From: Escherichia coli
Lineage (GTDB): Bacteria > Pseudomonadota > Gammaproteobacteria > Enterobacterales > Enterobacteriaceae
Assembly: GCF_003790525.1 (NCBI RefSeq)
Contig: NZ_CP033635.1
Strand: one strand, 5' to 3'
DNA: 64,000 nt
Part shown: positions 8,646-15,803 of the stretch, in pieces
Layout of the letters: each line of letters starts with the position of its first letter
Numbering within the stretch: the first letter of the stretch is position 1
The notes under the pieces: generated by a model
What the model saw: the letters and a program-made list of their open reading frames with translations, nothing else
Database searches by the model: none
Told to the model about the DNA's origin: nothing
Made by a program: the position numbers and the translations under genes

Positions 8646-9899
8646 ATGTCAGGATCCAACACTGCAATCAGCCGTCGTCGTTTACTGCAAGGCGCGGGTG
8701 CCATGTGGCTATTGAGCGTAAGTCAGGTCAGCCTGGCTGCGGTCAGCCAGGTCGTGGCGGTGCGCGTCTGGCCTGCGTCCAGCTACACCCGCGTGACGGT
8801 AGAATCTAATCGTCAGCTGAAATATAAGCAGTTCGCGTTGAGTAATCCTGAACGCGTGGTGGTGGATATCGAAGATGTAAACCTGAACTCGGTGCTCAAG
8901 GGGATGGCTGCGCAAATCCGCGCTGACGACCCGTTCATCAAGTCGGCGCGCGTCGGGCAATTTGACCCGCAAACCGTACGTATGGTTTTTGAATTAAAGC
9001 AAAACGTAAAACCGCAGCTGTTTGCCCTTGCGCCGGTCGCCGGGTTTAAAGAGCGTCTGGTGATGGATCTCTATCCTGCCAATGCACAGGATATGCAGGA
9101 CCCGCTGCTGGCGCTGCTGGAGGATTACAACAAAGGCGACCTCGAAAAGCAGGTGCCGCCAGCACAAAGTGGTCCACAACCGGGTAAAGCTGGGCGGGAT
9201 CGTCCGATTGTCATTATGCTTGACCCTGGTCACGGTGGCGAAGACTCCGGTGCGGTGGGGAAATACAAAACACGCGAAAAAGACGTAGTATTGCAAATAG
9301 CTCGCCGTCTGCGCTCTCTGATCGAGAAAGAGGGCAATATGAAGGTGTACATGACGCGCAATGAAGACATCTTCATTCCGTTGCAAGTGCGCGTAGCAAA
9401 AGCCCAGAAACAGCGTGCTGACTTGTTTGTCTCTATCCATGCCGACGCCTTTACCAGTCGCCAGCCGAGCGGTTCCTCGGTGTTTGCGCTCTCAACCAAA
9501 GGCGCAACCAGTACTGCGGCAAAATATCTGGCACAAACCCAGAACGCCTCGGACTTGATTGGTGGCGTAAGCAAAAGCGGTGACCGCTATGTCGACCACA
9601 CTATGTTCGATATGGTGCAGTCGCTGACCATTGCTGACAGCCTGAAGTTTGGTAAAGCGGTGCTGAATAAGCTCGGTAAAATCAACAAGCTGCATAAAAA
9701 TCAAGTTGAACAGGCCGGGTTTGCCGTACTAAAGGCACCAGATATTCCCTCCATTCTGGTCGAAACGGCGTTTATCAGTAACGTTGAGGAAGAGCGTAAA
9801 CTGAAAACGGCGACTTTCCAGCAGGAAGTTGCGGAGTCTATTCTTGCGGGAATTAAAGCGTATTTTGCCGATGGGGCGACGCTGGCGAGAAGGGGATAA
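8646..9899 (+). CDS. amiC: N-acetylmuramoyl-L-alanine amidase AmiC (Tat-exported)
   Basis: ORF 8556..9899. The recognised AmiC starts at ATG 8646 ([18 protein letters not shown], twin-arginine signal) and is 417 aa. Confidence 0.95.
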
Positions 9900-10071
9900 T
9901 GTTTTTATTTATTCAATGAATTTATATTTCGTTGAATAGATAACATTTACCTGAATATTAGACGCTGGTTTTGTGACTGATGTCGGATATTTGAATGTCG
10001 GCTTGAAAAATAAGCCGACCATCTCTTTAATTAAGCACAATTCCGTGTAATGTATACGCATTAGTTAATCA

Positions 10072-10101
10072 TCTTGTAACTGTTAAATCAGGCAAGGCAA
10101 T
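10072..10101 (+). promoter_or_regulatory. RAT-like (ribonucleic antiterminator) element, probable target of the downstream BglG-family antiterminator
   Basis: tCTTGTAACTGTTAAATCAGGCAAGGCAat aligns by eye with the bgl/licT RAT consensus GGATTGTTACTG.....CAGGCAAAACC at about 20 of 29 positions. Its 3' part overlaps the left arm of the terminator stem. Confidence 0.6.
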
Positions 10102-10145
10102 GTTTGAAGTAATCATTACTTCTGACGTGCCTTGCCTTTTTTTTT
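10091..10145 (+). terminator. Intrinsic terminator in the leader of the island operon
   Basis: ggcaaggca (10091-10099) pairs with tgccttgcc (10128-10136). There is an inner gaagtaat/attacttc stem, followed by a run of 9 T (10137-10145) just before the antiterminator RBS and ATG. Confidence 0.8.
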
Positions 10146-10156
10146 GGAGCCATGAA

Positions 10157-10981
10157 ATGATCATCGAAAAAGTCATGAACAATAATTGTGTACAGGCATC
10201 GATGAATGGACAGGAGGTTATCATTTCTGGGCCTGGCGTCGGTTACAACAAAAAATATGGAATGTCGGTCCCTGAGCATCCGGCTAACCGGATTTTTTAT
10301 GTCAGAAATGAACAAAAAAATAAACTCTACAAATTGATTGAACATGTGGATATTGAGTATGTTTTTGTTGCCGAAAAAATAGTGCAATATGCGGAGAACA
10401 ATCTCGAAAAAAATCTCAATCCATCGCTACTATTGATTCTTGCTGATCACATTTCGAATGCAATATCCCGAGTCGCTTCAGGCATACAAATTAATAATGT
10501 TTTCCTTGATGAAATCAAAGCGTTGTACAAAGCAGAGTATGCGATAAGTCGCGATGCATTAACTATCATTAATGAGCAATTCAGCGTTCAACTTCCTGAT
10601 GATGAGATTGGTTTTATAGCATTGCATATTTTAAATAATTATGAAAATTCAGTTGATTATGAATCAGTACGGATTATTGAGTTGTCGCAAATAATCACGG
10701 GGCTTATTGAAGTTGTTTATAACAGAAAGGTGGACAGAAGTTCATTTAATTATTCCAGGTTCATGATACACCTTAAATATTTTTCAAGTCGCGTATTATG
10801 TAATGAAAAGATAAAACAAAAAGATATTGGTGACATCTATGAGCAGTTTCTTGAGAAAGACATCCTGTTACAGCGCGCAATTCATGAAATTGAACGGTAT
10901 CTGTATGCCACTTTTAAATATGAATTAATTTTAGAAGAAAAACTATATCTCTCAATTCGTACCAAAGTATTAATGGACTAA
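10157..10981 (+). CDS. BglG/LicT/SacY-family transcription antiterminator (CAT RNA-binding domain plus PRD domains)
   Basis: ORF 10100..10981. Starting at ATG 10157 (ggag RBS upstream), the N-terminus MIIEKVMNNNCVQASMNGQEVIISGPGVGYNKK matches the CAT domain pattern MKIxKVLNNNVV...G.E.I..G.GIGF. Its length of 274 aa is typical for the family. Confidence 0.85.
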   Translation: MIIEKVMNNNCVQASMNGQEVIISGPGVGYNKKYGMSVPEHPANRIFYVRNEQKNKLYKLIEHVDIEYVFVAEKIVQYAENNLEKNLNPSLLLILADHISNAISRVASGIQINNVFLDEIKALYKAEYAISRDALTIINEQFSVQLPDDEIGFIALHILNNYENSVDYESVRIIELSQIITGLIEVVYNRKVDRSSFNYSRFMIHLKYFSSRVLCNEKIKQKDIGDIYEQFLEKDILLQRAIHEIERYLYATFKYELILEEKLYLSIRTKVLMD

Positions 10982-11012
10982 TTATATATAACATTTATAT
11001 GAGATAACCCAC

Positions 11013-12593
11013 ATGAAACAAAAGAAAGCCTGGAGTTTTTTTCAGAGCCTGGGAAAGGCATTCATGTATCCCATTGCTCTGCTAAGTGTATGTGGCATGA
11101 TGCTAGGGCTGGGAAGTGGTTTAGCCAGTGATGATATGGCAAAGTTAATTCCATTTCTGGCTATTCCAATAATTAAAACCATACTTGATTTCATTGTTAG
11201 TCTTGGTTTGTTTGCCTTTGTTAATTTACCTGTATTGTTTGCGATAGCGATTCCCTTAGGATTATTAAAAGATAAAGAGGATAAAGCCTATGGTGCTTTT
11301 TCTGGCTTAATTGGTTTTATGGCGATGCATCTGGGAACGAACTTTTATCTTAAACAGCACGACTTATTGGTCGCTGCTGACCAAATGTCGACACATGGGC
11401 AAACCATCATTCTGGGGATCCAGTCCTACAATACCAGCGTGTTAGGGGGAATTGTTGCTGGGTTATTAGTCGCCAGCATGTATAAAAAGATCGTTAATTT
11501 ACGCATTCCTGAATCATTAGGTTTTTATAGCGGCCCACGTCTGGTGCCTATCATTACACTGATTGTGATGAGTGGATTTGGTCTGATCATCCCTTTTATC
11601 TGGCCGCCGTTTTTCAATCTTTTCATGCTCATTGGCCACTGGATTTCAACTTCCGGTCCTGTTGGCTATTTTTTCTATGCAGTCGCCGAACGCGTGACGA
11701 TACCTTTTGGTTTAAATCACCTGGTGACGTCAGTTTTCCGCTTTACCCCCATCGGCGGATCGGCAGTGATCGGCGGCGAAGAGTATTATGGCACCCTGAA
11801 CATGTTTATGGCGTACGTCAAAGAGAATGCGGTCATTCCGCTGGATTTGGCGGGGAAAATGGAACAGGGCAAACTGATGATTCAGTATGGTCTGGCTGGT
11901 GCCGCGCTGGCGATGTATCGCACTGCTCATGCTCAAAACAGAAAAGCTATCAAAGCATTGCTTATTTCCGGGGTGCTTACAGTCATTATTGGCGGCGTCA
12001 GCGAACCGATTGAGTTTCTGTTCTTATTTGTCAGTCCACTGCTGTTTGTCTTCCATGCATTTATGAATGGATTCGCCAACATGGTCTTGCCATATATGGG
12101 CGTGAAGATGGGATTTACTGGCGATCTGATTCAATTTATTAGCTTTGGCGTATTGCGTGGCACAAGAACAGGTTGGCCAATAGCGGTGTGTGTCGAAGTG
12201 GCCTATTTCTTTATTTATTACTTTGTGTTCCGTTGGACTATTCTCAAATTTAACCTGATGACGGTAGGCCGTGAAGAGTCCAGTCCTGTCACGCTGAACG
12301 CTCATGAGGATACGGCTATAGCGGATATCCCAACTCCTGATAAATCAGAGCTGCAAGCGGCGGAGCAGATGGTTAAGGCACTTGGTGGTAAAGAGAATAT
12401 TAAGTCACTGGATAATTGCGTAACTCGTTTACGTTTAACAATCGCAGATATGGGATTGCTTGACGAGGCTGCAATAAAAAGAGCCGGCGGAATTGCGGTT
12501 GTTAAACTTGATCAAAATACCCTACAAGTCATTATCGGTACTAAAGTCATCGCCTTGCGTCGGGATATGGATAACTACATGGGGATATGCTGA
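11013..12593 (+). CDS. PTS enzyme IICB, glucose/maltose (MalX/PtsG/GlvC-like) family; no EIIA domain
   Basis: 526-aa polytopic membrane protein whose N-terminus (FFQSLGKAFMYPIALL) is typical of Glc-family EIIC. The C-terminal EIIB domain carries the phosphorylatable Cys motif LDNCVTRLRLTIAD. Confidence 0.88.
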   Translation: MKQKKAWSFFQSLGKAFMYPIALLSVCGMMLGLGSGLASDDMAKLIPFLAIPIIKTILDFIVSLGLFAFVNLPVLFAIAIPLGLLKDKEDKAYGAFSGLIGFMAMHLGTNFYLKQHDLLVAADQMSTHGQTIILGIQSYNTSVLGGIVAGLLVASMYKKIVNLRIPESLGFYSGPRLVPIITLIVMSGFGLIIPFIWPPFFNLFMLIGHWISTSGPVGYFFYAVAERVTIPFGLNHLVTSVFRFTPIGGSAVIGGEEYYGTLNMFMAYVKENAVIPLDLAGKMEQGKLMIQYGLAGAALAMYRTAHAQNRKAIKALLISGVLTVIIGGVSEPIEFLFLFVSPLLFVFHAFMNGFANMVLPYMGVKMGFTGDLIQFISFGVLRGTRTGWPIAVCVEVAYFFIYYFVFRWTILKFNLMTVGREESSPVTLNAHEDTAIADIPTPDKSELQAAEQMVKALGGKENIKSLDNCVTRLRLTIADMGLLDEAAIKRAGGIAVVKLDQNTLQVIIGTKVIALRRDMDNYMGIC

Positions 12594-13768
12594 TGGATGT
12601 TTTTAATACTCCTATTTCCCGCAAAGGAACATATTGTACCCAATGGGACTTTTGCGAGGACAGATTTGGTGTAAAAGATGTATTACCATTCTCTATTTCA
12701 GATATGGATCTTCCGATACCAGACGCTATCACCAGAGCATTAAAAAAACGTCTGGAACACCCGATTTTAGGGTACAGCCGTTGGCAGCATGATGACTATC
12801 TGAATGCGATAGTCAATTGGTATCATCAACAATATAAAACTGAAATCAAACCAGAATGGATCACCTATAGCCCAAGCGTGATGTACTCCATTGCTAAAGC
12901 AATAGAGTTATTGACATCGCATGGTGATAATATTCTCGTTTTTACACCTGTCTATAATGCATTTTTTGATATAATTAAACATAGCGAGAGAAATATTCTG
13001 ACAGCCTCTTTGATTATAAAAAATGAGGGGGGCTACGCTATCAATTGGCAAGATTTTGATCTTAAGATTCAAAGCGCAAAGATGGTGTTATTATGTAATC
13101 CTCATAACCCGACAGGAACAGTCTGGTCGGAAGAAGAACTGCATAAAATCGCTGCAAGCTGTACAAGGCATAATGTCTGGTTATGTTCAGATGAAATCCA
13201 TAGTGATTTTGTTTTTAATCGTAGCTTTACATCCGCGCTTAAAATAAAAAAAGAAAAAGTAGTAGTATTTAACTCGATATCGAAAACATTTAATGTTCCT
13301 GCACTAACAGGATCGTATATGATTTCAACTGACGATAATTTTAATCATAAGTTCAGAACGATATCGAGGTATCGCGATTTTGTAAACTCCCCATCAGTAC
13401 TGAATATAATTGCAACTATTATTGCCTATAACGAATGTGAGGGATGGTTAAAGTCATTAAAGGCACATATTGCCTCTAACATTCAATTCACCCAGCAGTA
13501 TCTGAACGAAAACACTCCAGAATTGATCGTAAGGCCAGCTGATGGTTGCTATTTTTCGTGGATAGATTGCTCTGCTATTGGTTATCCCTTTGATGAATTC
13601 TACAGTCGATTAATTCATGAAGGCAAAGTGGGCATTATGGCGGGGAATGTCTATGGAACGGAGGGGGAGGGCTACCTTCGTCTGAACCTGGCCTGCGGTC
13701 GAGAAAAATTATATATGGGGCTTACGCGTCTTGCGAGTGTAATTAAAAATATTAATCAAGGAAAATAA
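12593..13768 (+). CDS. MalY/PatB-type PLP-dependent C-S lyase (class I/II aminotransferase fold)
   Basis: ORF 12587..13768. It aligns by eye with E. coli MalY along its length (GTYCTQWD, LPFSISDMD, GYSRW, NPHNPTG, SDEIHSD, SISKTFNVPALTG with the PLP lysine). Starting at ATG 12593 gives TGATG coupling to the PTS gene. Confidence 0.85.
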   Translation: MDVFNTPISRKGTYCTQWDFCEDRFGVKDVLPFSISDMDLPIPDAITRALKKRLEHPILGYSRWQHDDYLNAIVNWYHQQYKTEIKPEWITYSPSVMYSIAKAIELLTSHGDNILVFTPVYNAFFDIIKHSERNILTASLIIKNEGGYAINWQDFDLKIQSAKMVLLCNPHNPTGTVWSEEELHKIAASCTRHNVWLCSDEIHSDFVFNRSFTSALKIKKEKVVVFNSISKTFNVPALTGSYMISTDDNFNHKFRTISRYRDFVNSPSVLNIIATIIAYNECEGWLKSLKAHIASNIQFTQQYLNENTPELIVRPADGCYFSWIDCSAIGYPFDEFYSRLIHEGKVGIMAGNVYGTEGEGYLRLNLACGREKLYMGLTRLASVIKNINQGK

Positions 13769-13770
13769 AA

Positions 13771-14367
13771 ATGAACAGCACGGATCTTATCCATCTCATT
13801 AAACATTTTATGCGTAACGAACATAAAGCAGTTGAAGAAGTTATTGATTCCCCCCTTTCGGAGGTCGCAAATTTAATTAAAGTATTACAGTCTTGTCAGG
13901 GGAAAGTTGTTTTTATTGGTGTCGGTAAGTCCGGTATTATTGCCCGAAAACTCGCCGCAACATTTGCCAGCACTGGAACTCCCTCGTTTTTTGTTCACGG
14001 TACGGAAGCGGTACACGGCGACCTTGGAATGGTGGCGAAAGACGATGTTGTTATTCTTATTTCAAACAGTGGTGAGACGGCGGAAATCCTGGCGACACTG
14101 CCTAGTCTGAAAAAAATGGGTAATTATTTGATCTCTTTTACACGCAGTCATCACTCATCGCTTGCGATAAGTTGTGATTTATCCGTTGAAATTCCCGTAA
14201 AAAGTGAGGCGGATAATTTAGGTTTAGCGCCGTCATGCTCATCAACAGTCGTTCTGGTTGTTGGTGATGCGGTGGCGCTTGCGCTCTCCGAATTGAAAAA
14301 GTTTACTCGTGCTGATTTCGGCTTATATCATCCAGGAGGTGCGCTCGGTATTAAAGCAAACTCATAA
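13771..14367 (+). CDS. Single-domain SIS sugar-phosphate isomerase, KdsD/GutQ (arabinose-5-phosphate isomerase) type, lacking the CBS pair
   Basis: 198 aa. GVGKSGIIARKLAATFASTGTPSFFVHGTEAVHGDLGMV...ISNSGET...GLAPSCSSTVVLVVGDA...YHPGGALG closely parallels the SIS domain of KdsD. The protein ends where KdsD/GutQ CBS domains would begin. Confidence 0.85.
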   Translation: MNSTDLIHLIKHFMRNEHKAVEEVIDSPLSEVANLIKVLQSCQGKVVFIGVGKSGIIARKLAATFASTGTPSFFVHGTEAVHGDLGMVAKDDVVILISNSGETAEILATLPSLKKMGNYLISFTRSHHSSLAISCDLSVEIPVKSEADNLGLAPSCSSTVVLVVGDAVALALSELKKFTRADFGLYHPGGALGIKANS

Positions 14368-14438
14368 TTTCAAAATATAAATACAGTAACCGGTCACGCC
14401 ATCTTTTGGGGTGGCGTTCTTTGAAGTGAGTGTCAGCT

Positions 14439-15386
14439 ATGAAAAATGTTCTGGTCACCGTCCCCAGCTTTTCAGCACGCTGTGTTTCCGCCAGCAAGTT
14501 GCTAAGAGAGAATAATTTTAATCTTATTATTAAGAATAATGTGGAGCATCTGCTTAAATCAGAATCCACTGCATTACGAGAATCTATTTGCGCGGTCATC
14601 GCCGGAAAAGATTGTTATCAGGCGGACACGCTATCATTGCTGTCTGGTGTGAAAATAATATCGAGATTCGGGACGGGGATAGACAATATTGATCTTCGTG
14701 CGGCACAGCAATCCGGTATTGTTGTCAATAATGCGGTTGGGATTAATTCAAATGCGGTTGCGGAATTTATCATTGGACTTATCTTCGCGAGCATGAGAAA
14801 TATCCCCGGTAGCTATCATGCGATGCAAAATGGTTATTGGGGCGAGTCGCATGGCTGCGAGTTACAAGGTAAACGTATTGGCCTGCTTGGCTACGGCAAT
14901 ATTGGCAAAACACTGGCGAAAAGGTTATCTGGTTTTGATGTTGAGCTTTTAGCTTTTGACAAACAACCCGATTTCCAGGCCGCAGGCAAAGATGGAGTTC
15001 AGTTCGTATCAATTGAAGATATCTTTATGCAGTCTCATGTCATCATCGTTCTTTTGCCATTTTCTCCGGAGCTGGAGAACTTCATTAGTCATAAATATTT
15101 GTCGATGATGCGCAATGGTGCTCTGATCATCAACGCCGCAAGGGGAAAGTTGCTGGATGAGGGTGCTTTACTTCAGGTAATTGAAGAACGAAATGTTTTT
15201 GCAGCACTGGATGTGTTTAGCTCTGAACCGCTAGCGCAATTTAGCCCATTGCTACATGCCAAGAATATCATTACAACGCCGCATATTGCGGCCGCCACCG
15301 TTGAGTCATACCAGCAAACCGGGATATACGTTGCCCAGTCGATAATTGATTACTTCGCAGGAAGGGAGATAAAAAACGTGCTGTGA
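14439..15386 (+). CDS. D-isomer-specific 2-hydroxyacid dehydrogenase (SerA/PGDH-like), NAD-binding
   Basis: ORF 14430 (GTG)..15386. ATG 14439 has better RBS spacing (gtgag). It carries GLLGYGNIGKTLAKRL (GxGxxG) and the C-terminal TPHIAA motif typical of the family. Confidence 0.8.
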   Translation: MKNVLVTVPSFSARCVSASKLLRENNFNLIIKNNVEHLLKSESTALRESICAVIAGKDCYQADTLSLLSGVKIISRFGTGIDNIDLRAAQQSGIVVNNAVGINSNAVAEFIIGLIFASMRNIPGSYHAMQNGYWGESHGCELQGKRIGLLGYGNIGKTLAKRLSGFDVELLAFDKQPDFQAAGKDGVQFVSIEDIFMQSHVIIVLLPFSPELENFISHKYLSMMRNGALIINAARGKLLDEGALLQVIEERNVFAALDVFSSEPLAQFSPLLHAKNIITTPHIAAATVESYQQTGIYVAQSIIDYFAGREIKNVL

Positions 15387-15411
15387 GTTCAGCTAAGGAA
15401 TATTTCAGGTA

Positions 15412-15447
15412 CAAAAAAACCGCAATTTGTGAAACACATTGCGGTTT
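15412..15447 (-). terminator. Intrinsic terminator downstream of metV (minus strand); may also stop the convergent island operon
   Basis: The minus strand reads aaccgcaat-gtgtttcacaa-attgcggtt followed by TTTTTTT (A-run 15413-15419 on plus). It lies 17 nt after the tRNA 3' end. Confidence 0.8.
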
Positions 15448-15464
15448 ATCAGCATCATAAGTGT

Positions 15465-15541
<77 letters not shown>

Positions 15542-15575
15542 TCACCGTACTGCTTTTACTTCATCAAATTTTGAT

Positions 15576-15652
<77 letters not shown>

Positions 15653-15685
15653 TCACCGTACTGCTTTACTTCATCAAATTTTAAT

Positions 15686-15762
<77 letters not shown>

Positions 15763-15775
15763 TCCGTGGATGCGC

Positions 15776-15803
15776 ACTATACTCTGCTCGCGTTTTCATG
15801 CAA
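15776..15803 (-). promoter_or_regulatory. Putative sigma70 promoter of metZWV
   Basis: The minus strand reads TTGCAT-16 nt-TATAGT followed by a GC-rich GCGC discriminator. An A/T-rich tract lies upstream. The -10 element lies 14-19 nt upstream of the mature tRNA 5' end. Confidence 0.5.

Follow-up and report, generated by a model that had tools for sequence, protein, structure and literature searches.

What do five tightly packed genes of low G+C content do between amiC and the initiator-tRNA cluster metZWV of some Escherichia coli, and how did they come to lie there? The question arises from a 64,000-nucleotide stretch of E. coli DNA (RefSeq assembly GCF_003790525.1, contig NZ_CP033635.1; hereafter the window), in which an earlier note, made from the sequence without database searches, had singled out positions 9900-15447 as an AT-rich 'orphan' phosphotransferase system (PTS) operon. 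Our answer is that the segment is very probably an old, horizontally acquired, low-G+C accessory operon for the uptake and breakdown of a carbohydrate, and the orthologue of c3405-c3409 of CFT073, a uropathogenic E. coli (UPEC). The features of the locus, in window coordinates and with the method or evidence that identified each, are as follows.

9900-10156, + strand: leader and regulatory region (sequence)
10073-10096, + strand: ribonucleic antiterminator (RAT)-like hairpin element, CUUGUAACUGUUAAAUCAGGCAAG (motif search)
10090-10145, + strand: intrinsic terminator, stem AGGCAAGGCA...UGCCUUGCCU followed by nine U (fold)
10157-10981, + strand: PRD antiterminator of LicT/GlcT/BglG type, 274 aa (Pfam CAT_RBD and PRD)
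11013-12593, + strand: PTS EIICB of the glucose family, closest to MalX, 526 aa (Pfam PTS_EIIC and PTS_EIIB)
12593-13768, + strand: PatB/MalY-family pyridoxal phosphate (PLP)-dependent beta C-S lyase-type enzyme, 391 aa (TIGR04350 PatB)
13771-14367, + strand: CBS-less KpsF/KdsD-type SIS sugar-phosphate isomerase, c3406 orthologue, 198 aa (single SIS domain, Pfam)
14439-15386, + strand: D-isomer 2-hydroxyacid dehydrogenase, short and phosphoglycerate dehydrogenase (PGDH)-like, without ACT domain, 315 aa (Pfam 2-Hacid_dh and 2-Hacid_dh_C)
15413-15444, - strand: metZWV operon terminator, hairpin CCGCAAU...AUUGCGG then U7 (sequence)
15465-15762, - strand: metV, metW and metZ (window order), three initiator tRNA-Met genes (ARAGORN, Rfam, K-12 annotation)

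Region 9900-15447 is identical (100%, full length) to the E. coli SMS-3-5 record NC_010498.1. The amiC stop lies at 9899, and both the listing of open reading frames (ORFs) and the RefSeq annotation of NC_010498.1 place five co-directional + strand genes in 10157-15386, bearing out the co-oriented, tightly coupled set first described; the intergenic gaps are, in gene order, 31 nt, a 1-nt overlap, 2 nt and 71 nt. In K-12 MG1655 the distance from the amiC stop to the metV 3' end is 73 nt, with 0 nt in common with the window segment. The amiC stop codon and both terminators differ in sequence between the two genomes; the K-12 site has its own amiC and metV terminators, and no operon remnant was found there. 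Because K-12's 73 nt share nothing with the window, the variable segment extends to 15464, just short of the metV 3' end at 15465 that forms its right boundary, and comprises 9900-15464 (5,565 bp, amiC stop codon to metV 3' end). The location given in the earlier note therefore stands, with its right edge moved slightly outwards. Among 5,426 complete E. coli genomes, over which the distribution was counted, 1,689 (31%) carry the operon and 3,503 have the K-12-type empty junction, in agreement with the accessory status proposed for it.

The G+C content of the 5,565-bp segment is 40.6%, compared with 52-56% in the flanking genes. In 500-nt windows it ranges from 31 to 47% inside the insert and from 52 to 58% in the flanks, and at third codon positions (GC3) from 0.34 to 0.46 in the operon genes and from 0.55 to 0.59 in six flanking genes. 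The low G+C claimed from single lines of sequence thus holds across the profile, and the low G+C and GC3 point to a foreign origin at some earlier time. The three tRNA genes (99.7% identical to K-12 metZWV) are followed by a terminator that lies inside the variable segment and gives no alignment with the K-12 intergenic region. As for the marks of a tRNA-associated island, an adjoining tRNA 3' end and deviant composition are present; an integrase and direct repeats are not. Neither integrase nor insertion sequence (IS) appears among the ORFs or in the RefSeq annotation of the insert, and at the amiC side no tRNA-derived repeat was found, the best local alignment being no better than shuffles (p ~0.7). 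ORFs, annotation and shuffle-tested alignment hence agree with the earlier description of an insert set against a tRNA 3' end without integrase, IS or repeat. A decayed tRNA 3'-end repeat near 9967-10005, hinted at by MAFFT, was rejected, as its scored local alignment stayed at the level of shuffled sequence. An Rfam scan of 9800-15800 (E<=1) returned the three tRNAs only, leaving the leader without a curated RNA family.

CFT073 (NC_004431.1 3249590-3254819) also carries the five genes beside amiC, in unchanged order and orientation, with 95.6-99.6% amino-acid and 94.1-97.6% nucleotide identity to the window. Bryant et al. (2010) described c3405-c3410 as a maltose/glucose-type PTS cluster inside the pathogenicity island PAI-CFT073-metV that all the UPEC they examined keep, as do E2348 and SMS-3-5 (PMC2831201). 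By sequence identity, the segment is best identified as the orthologue, in SMS-3-5, of an operon already described, in this strain too, namely c3405-c3409 of the metV island of CFT073; the correspondence drawn in the earlier note was correct. c3410, the sixth ORF of the old CFT073 annotation, is absent from the current RefSeq annotation. The operon has reportedly been linked to fitness in the urinary tract. Whereas the SMS-3-5 operon abuts metV, ~27 kb of type VI secretion system (T6SS) genes separate the CFT073 operon from it; the full 32-kb PAI-metV with its T6SS is not in the window, and no T6SS genes lie from the dehydrogenase gene to metV. A 2026 genome paper lists the cluster among regions without characterised function, with protein identities of 41% to MalX, 36% to MalY, 52% to KdsD, 32% to SerA and 30% to BglG.

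How is such an operon likely to be switched on? RAT hairpins are the RNA targets of the BglG/SacY/LicT antiterminators, and the leader carries a RAT hairpin that overlaps an intrinsic terminator, as in the systems governed by these proteins: the stretch 10090-10096 belongs both to the RAT, as its 3' part, and to the 5' arm of the terminator. The terminator folds at -28.8 to -31.5 kcal/mol (z -4.6 to -5.4), a stability that 0/200 shuffles matched. The RAT alone folds weakly (-6.3 kcal/mol), as expected, because a RAT needs its protein to compete with the terminator. Identity to the CFT073 leader is 99%, and each enterobacterial copy of the operon has the RAT motif once, shortly before the antiterminator gene; in Citrobacter and two Enterobacter genomes RAT and terminator both precede that gene. 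In the RAT alignment 93.9% of cells pair, and the Enterobacter top stem has one compensatory change, from G-C to A-U. The terminator hairpins of Citrobacter, Enterobacter and Clostridioides difficile similarly have other stem sequences in which compensatory changes keep the pairing. In C. difficile, four tandem RAT (GGAUUGUAACUGGUUAAGCAGGCAAAACC)-terminator modules, ~104 nt apart, were seen between the antiterminator and EIICB genes (locus L009, 5996-6430), whereas E. coli has a single module upstream of the antiterminator gene. Two further signals in the leader are minor. A terminator-like hairpin at 9997-10019, from a consensus scan, may serve as the amiC terminator. A CRP-like half-match, TGTGACTGATGTCGGA (~9972-9987), was sighted by eye only and is not claimed.

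Families were assigned with Pfam and NCBIfam models and their cut-offs, which confirmed all those named in the earlier note, including an SIS protein without CBS domains. The antiterminator is read from ATG 10157, since GGAG at 10146-10149 precedes it (7 nt upstream) and the competing start, ATG 10100 (293-aa ORF), was rejected as lying within the terminator hairpin. Of the NCBIfam models, LicT scores best (226 bits, below its cut-off); GlcT scores 178 and BglG 104, so that the protein stands nearer to LicT and GlcT of Bacillus than to BglG of E. coli. The protein aligns with LicT over CAT, PRD1 and PRD2 (PRD part, residues 57-269), and H98, H157 and H205 stand where LicT has His100, His159 and His207. 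At the position of LicT His269, a phosphorylation site in PRD2, E. coli and Citrobacter have Arg268 (window codon 10958-10960), and the Enterobacter and C. difficile orthologues have His. The unit thus resembles bglGFB, licT-bglPH and glcT-ptsG in its CAT and two PRDs, its RAT/terminator overlap and the cognate EII in the operon. It differs from these BglG/SacY/LicT systems in the last PRD2 His, replaced by Arg, and in its permease, which resembles MalX and is not one for beta-glucosides or glucose.

The EIICB has the motifs GVSEPIEF (EIIC, GITE-type) and LDNCVTRLRL (EIIB, with the active-site Cys); there is no EIIA gene among the five genes of the E. coli operon. The lyase scores 368.8 bits with TIGR04350 PatB, above the cut-off of 340, and its best PDB match is E. 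coli MalY (1D2F, E 6e-85). The PLP (Schiff-base) lysine aligns, in SKTFN here and SKSFN in MalY, and this residue, K231, is invariant in 12 homologues; these sequence matches place the protein in the PatB/MalY family. The isomerase matches the N-terminal half only of the KdsD and KpsF models (TIGR00393, model positions 1-152 of 268, 191.4 bits with a cut-off of 203.7), and no CBS domain was hit by Pfam or NCBIfam in its 198 aa. It is 98.0% identical to the CFT073 protein, and nearly identical across all 198 residues, save for a handful of N-terminal differences, to the 'phosphosugar isomerase' of PDB 5UQI/5VHU. In alignment with the KdsD SIS domain (2XHZ), K53, H82, E105 and E146 fall at corresponding positions, and H187 lies within an HPGGALG motif; K53/H82/E105/E146/H187 presumably take the catalytic roles of Lys, His, Glu, Glu and His in KdsD. 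By sequence the protein thus appears to be a KpsF-family arabinose-5-phosphate isomerase, differing from KdsD, KpsF and GutQ in lacking the C-terminal CBS pair (198 aa vs ~320 aa). The 2011 paper of Mosberg et al. cited in the earlier note appears in reference lists; by its title, and according to a review, arabinose-5-phosphate isomerase activity is reported for the CFT073 protein. The dehydrogenase scores 212 bits with TIGR01327 PGDH (cut-off 454), and its best PDB match is 1WWK.

Two observations concern the junction of the lyase and isomerase genes. In a divergent allele class (~86-88%) the PatB ORF runs on to overlap the SIS ORF by 32 nt (L094, 6696-8469), and some E. coli and Shigella records have a single PatB-SIS fusion ORF of 550-592 aa (P0122-P0125, P0129, P0130).

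We asked of the operon whether it stands alone, as the label 'orphan' implied. Homologous operons were found with the following contents.

E. coli and Citrobacter: the four core genes (antiterminator, EIICB, PatB, SIS) and the dehydrogenase
Two Enterobacter genomes, at a different chromosomal site: antiterminator-EIICB-PatB-SIS
C. difficile 630, CD630_30270-30310: antiterminator-EIICB-PatB-SIS, with an EIIA
An Erysipelotrichaceae genome: antiterminator-EIICB-PatB-SIS, with an EIIA

The operons of Enterobacter, C. difficile and Erysipelotrichaceae lack the dehydrogenase gene. Synteny thus resolves the locus into a four-gene core and a dehydrogenase that is a later enterobacterial addition, and the orphan label does not hold. 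The C. difficile operon has the same order, with identities of 36, 68, 49 and 52% for antiterminator, EIICB, PatB and SIS, respectively, and has RAT and terminator as well; it differs in having its own EIIA-Glc and no dehydrogenase. Apart from EIIA, the neighbours of the C. difficile and Erysipelotrichaceae operons were not informative. In Mammaliicoccus lentus (L007/L008, 7354-11854), a close CBS-less homologue of the SIS protein (~52% identity) lies in a cluster of RbsD, LacI, SIS, PfkB kinase and major facilitator (MFS) genes; this looks like a utilisation operon for a pentose of the D-arabinose type.

The pairing of permease and lyase extends much further. We surveyed 75 loci of PatB/MalY relatives, taken from one genome per species (loci L014-L092). 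In 63 of them the PatB/MalY gene has an EIICB gene directly upstream, and such loci occur in Enterobacterales, Vibrionaceae, Aeromonas, Fusobacterium, Enterococcus, Bacillus, Brachyspira and Streptomyces. Apart from EIICB, the one neighbour that recurs in the 75 loci is a LacI-type regulator (39 loci), the others being specific to single lineages; no third enzyme is conserved beside the pair, neither glycosidase, kinase nor aldolase recurring. The EIICB-PatB pair seems to be sufficient by itself, and the metV operon is a specialised branch of a malX-malY-type unit. With malI-malX-malY of K-12 it shares a glucose-family EIICB gene immediately followed by a PatB/MalY lyase gene. The differences are that identity to MalX and MalY is only ~41% and 36%, respectively, and that malXY is governed by a LacI-type repressor and has no antiterminator, SIS isomerase or dehydrogenase.

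Together, the gene content and the leader suggest the following course of events. Transcription would begin in the leader and halt at the terminator (10090-10145), and would read through only when the LicT-type antiterminator binds the RAT (10073-10096); the anatomy is present in the DNA, and the activities are those expected of the BglG/SacY/LicT family. An idle EIICB would phosphorylate the antiterminator and so inactivate it, and substrate transport would release it. The MalX-like EIICB would import and phosphorylate the sugar by way of the general EIIA-Glc (Crr): because the E. coli operon has no EIIA, and those of C. difficile and Erysipelotrichaceae include an EIIA-Glc, the E. coli permease presumably uses Crr, like PtsG and MalX. 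In the pathway order that we propose, the PatB/MalY-type PLP enzyme may then act on the phosphorylated product, and the KpsF-type isomerase would turn the aldose phosphate so formed into a ketose phosphate; for the CFT073 orthologue, the single activity reported is conversion of arabinose 5-phosphate to ribulose 5-phosphate. The dehydrogenase, whose late arrival in enterobacteria is shown by synteny, may handle a side product.

Where did the operon come from, and when? Outside Enterobacteriaceae, the closest homologues of lyase and isomerase are in Firmicutes, and close CBS-less SIS homologues are many in Lactobacillaceae, Staphylococcaceae and Bacillaceae. These best homologues, the LicT/GlcT-like antiterminator and the composition together indicate a low-GC Gram-positive source, and judging from the sequences the operon most likely came from low-GC Firmicutes. 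Within E. coli, the search gave 1,691 matching places, one of them on a plasmid, which fall into identity bands of >=99% (25 records), 95-99% (1,273) and 90-95% (390). Allele classes are up to 8.5% apart in nucleotides, PatB being the most divergent gene of the distant alleles (88%). The operon was at the same locus in all alleles examined, and the distant alleles (88-94%) have the same site and the same architecture. Between SMS-3-5 and CFT073 the operon differs by 2.4-5.9% of nucleotides and the flanking core genes by 1-3.7%; with a divergence close to that of its flanks, the operon has long resided in the species and is no recent insertion. A further record is that of E. coli HS-02 (NZ_CP172818.1; L095, 4678-8789), with an unannotated 4.1-kb version of the operon in the amiC-metV gap at ~72% identity. 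That version has almost no C on the + strand (113 C vs 1,013 G; GC skew ~+0.8). Its differences are most often C>T, and it encloses a fragment like the empty site of K-12, between flanks that are normal; errors of assembly or base calling in the record probably account for it.

Of the 1,689 genomes with the operon, 596 resemble SMS-3-5 in that the dehydrogenase gene adjoins metV without interruption. The ~27-kb T6SS cluster separates operon and metV in CFT073 and 536; at the end nearer the operon, the metV terminator occurs once more, together with the spacer and the final 15 nt of the tRNA (TTGGTTGCGGGGGCC). This copy is identical over 41 nt to the true metV end (CFT073, L012 24470-24580 and L093 10350-10460; 536, L003 25500-25581). 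In CFT073 one copy of the metZWV terminator hairpin thus stands at each end of the T6SS module. In both strains the PTS operon is outside the repeat-bounded unit. Because the direct repeat bounds the T6SS module only and leaves the PTS operon outside, PAI-metV is composite. The earlier characterisation of the locus as a classic island site is accordingly right in that the segment adjoins a tRNA 3' end, and needs amending in that the repeat-bounded unit of CFT073 and 536 is the T6SS module. The simplest reading is that the module integrated at metV in a genome (B2 strains) that already had the operon beside the tRNA, SMS-3-5 representing either the earlier operon-only state or precise loss of the module.

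The same data bear on the alternative that fares best, which concerns history only: the segment would be ancestral in E. coli and deleted in the lineage leading to K-12-type genomes (A/B1/E), rather than inserted in that of SMS-3-5. All alleles share site and architecture, neither mobility genes nor repeats were found, F and B2 copies diverge about as much as the flanking core genes, and the allele classes are as far apart as just described. On the other side, the low G+C and GC3 mark a foreign origin at some earlier time, and the K-12 site, with terminators of its own for amiC and metV, holds no remnant of the operon. We regard a deletion as possible though on balance doubtful; it is compatible with an operon for carbohydrate uptake and breakdown, of which it would change only the history.

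Several points weigh against our reading of the locus as a whole. No sigma-70 consensus match, and so no convincing promoter, was found on the + strand of the leader, and the region scanned had fewer hits than shuffles. The EIICB does not reach the cut-off of TIGR02004 malX (538.8 vs 632.2 bits) or of PRK10110 (525.5 vs 665); because the antiterminator is below every equivalog cut-off and the EIICB below that of MalX, specificities cannot be transferred from the named families. Control by HPr may differ from that of LicT, since one of the four PRD histidines is Arg. The lyase might be regulatory rather than catabolic, by analogy with E. coli MalY, which binds MalT. Transfer from Firmicutes to Enterobacteriaceae is suggested by composition and best hits, and the operon may have been either gained by the B2/F lineages or lost by that of K-12. 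Finally, the literature searched on c3405-c3410, PAI-metV, the C. difficile orthologues, malXY and 5UQI/5VHU yielded no substrate assignment, and no experiment was found in it that identifies substrate, inducer or enzyme order.

Which carbohydrate, then, might the operon serve? As a suggestion, a conjugated sugar that ends in the pentose-phosphate pool is a candidate with which the synteny data are compatible. A more specific proposal takes up the family-wide pairing of EIICB and PatB. This malXY-type pair would by itself make up a two-step pathway, whose substrate would be an amino acid bearing a sugar on its beta-carbon, such as an S- or O-glycosyl cysteine or serine: the PTS would phosphorylate the sugar part, and the PLP lyase, rather than a glycosidase, would free the sugar phosphate by beta-elimination, with pyruvate and ammonia as the other products. 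In the subclade of the metV and C. difficile operons, the KpsF-type isomerase would then pass the product to the pentose-phosphate pathway. We consider the proposal unlikely to be right; if true, it would answer a question that dates from 1991 by giving MalX and MalY their first physiological role, and would also identify the nutrient that the UPEC operon handles.

A second alternative is biosynthetic. An extra arabinose-5-phosphate isomerase would feed the synthesis of 3-deoxy-D-manno-octulosonic acid (Kdo) for lipopolysaccharide (LPS) or capsule, like KdsD and KpsF, and the PTS genes would be unrelated or regulatory, as suspected for GutQ; gutQ likewise sits in a PTS operon, that for glucitol, whose sugar has no obvious need of an isomerase. 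The SIS protein is closest to KdsD, KpsF and GutQ and has the catalytic positions of the KdsD SIS domain occupied, a review describes the CFT073 enzyme as an arabinose-5-phosphate isomerase making an LPS precursor, and the 2026 genome paper also reads the isomerase in an LPS context. However, E. coli already has kdsD and gutQ, and CBS-less homologues are common in the Gram-positive families named above. The 2-nt gap between the PatB and SIS genes and the records in which both are called as one fused protein argue that the two act in one pathway. The SIS gene follows EIICB-PatB in C. difficile and Erysipelotrichaceae too, which are Gram-positive and have neither Kdo nor LPS. Because these carriers make no Kdo, a role in LPS cannot explain why the isomerase is conserved in the operon. 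A biosynthetic role is accordingly quite improbable in our judgement, and a role for the isomerase in a catabolic pathway more likely.

The last alternative, in which the EIICB is a second glucose/maltose-type permease and the PatB/MalY-like protein a regulator, as MalY is for MalT, with no unusual substrate, draws on the paralogy of the pair with malX-malY and on published work that assigns to MalX the recognition of glucose and maltose, and to MalY the repression of the maltose regulon, but we hold it to be very improbable, given that the EIICB-PatB pair is kept in Firmicutes, Fusobacteria, spirochaetes and Streptomyces, and in Lactobacillus sakei without a MalT homologue, that the PLP lysine and many active-site columns are invariant, fitting a retained enzymatic function, and that a dedicated sugar-phosphate isomerase is co-transcribed.

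The feature is known, and ordinary for an accessory locus of E. coli. What the analysis adds to the description of an operon for carbohydrate uptake and breakdown is incremental: a leader with RAT and terminator, a core of four genes in common with C. difficile, a dehydrogenase that not all the operons have, the kinship with malXY and the composite nature of PAI-metV. Because the island is composite, phenotypes of whole-island deletions should not be ascribed to one of its modules. Among extraintestinal pathogenic E. coli the operon is common as an accessory trait; it has a syntenic relative in C. difficile, and its single RAT-terminator leader offers an experimental handle and a route to finding the inducer.

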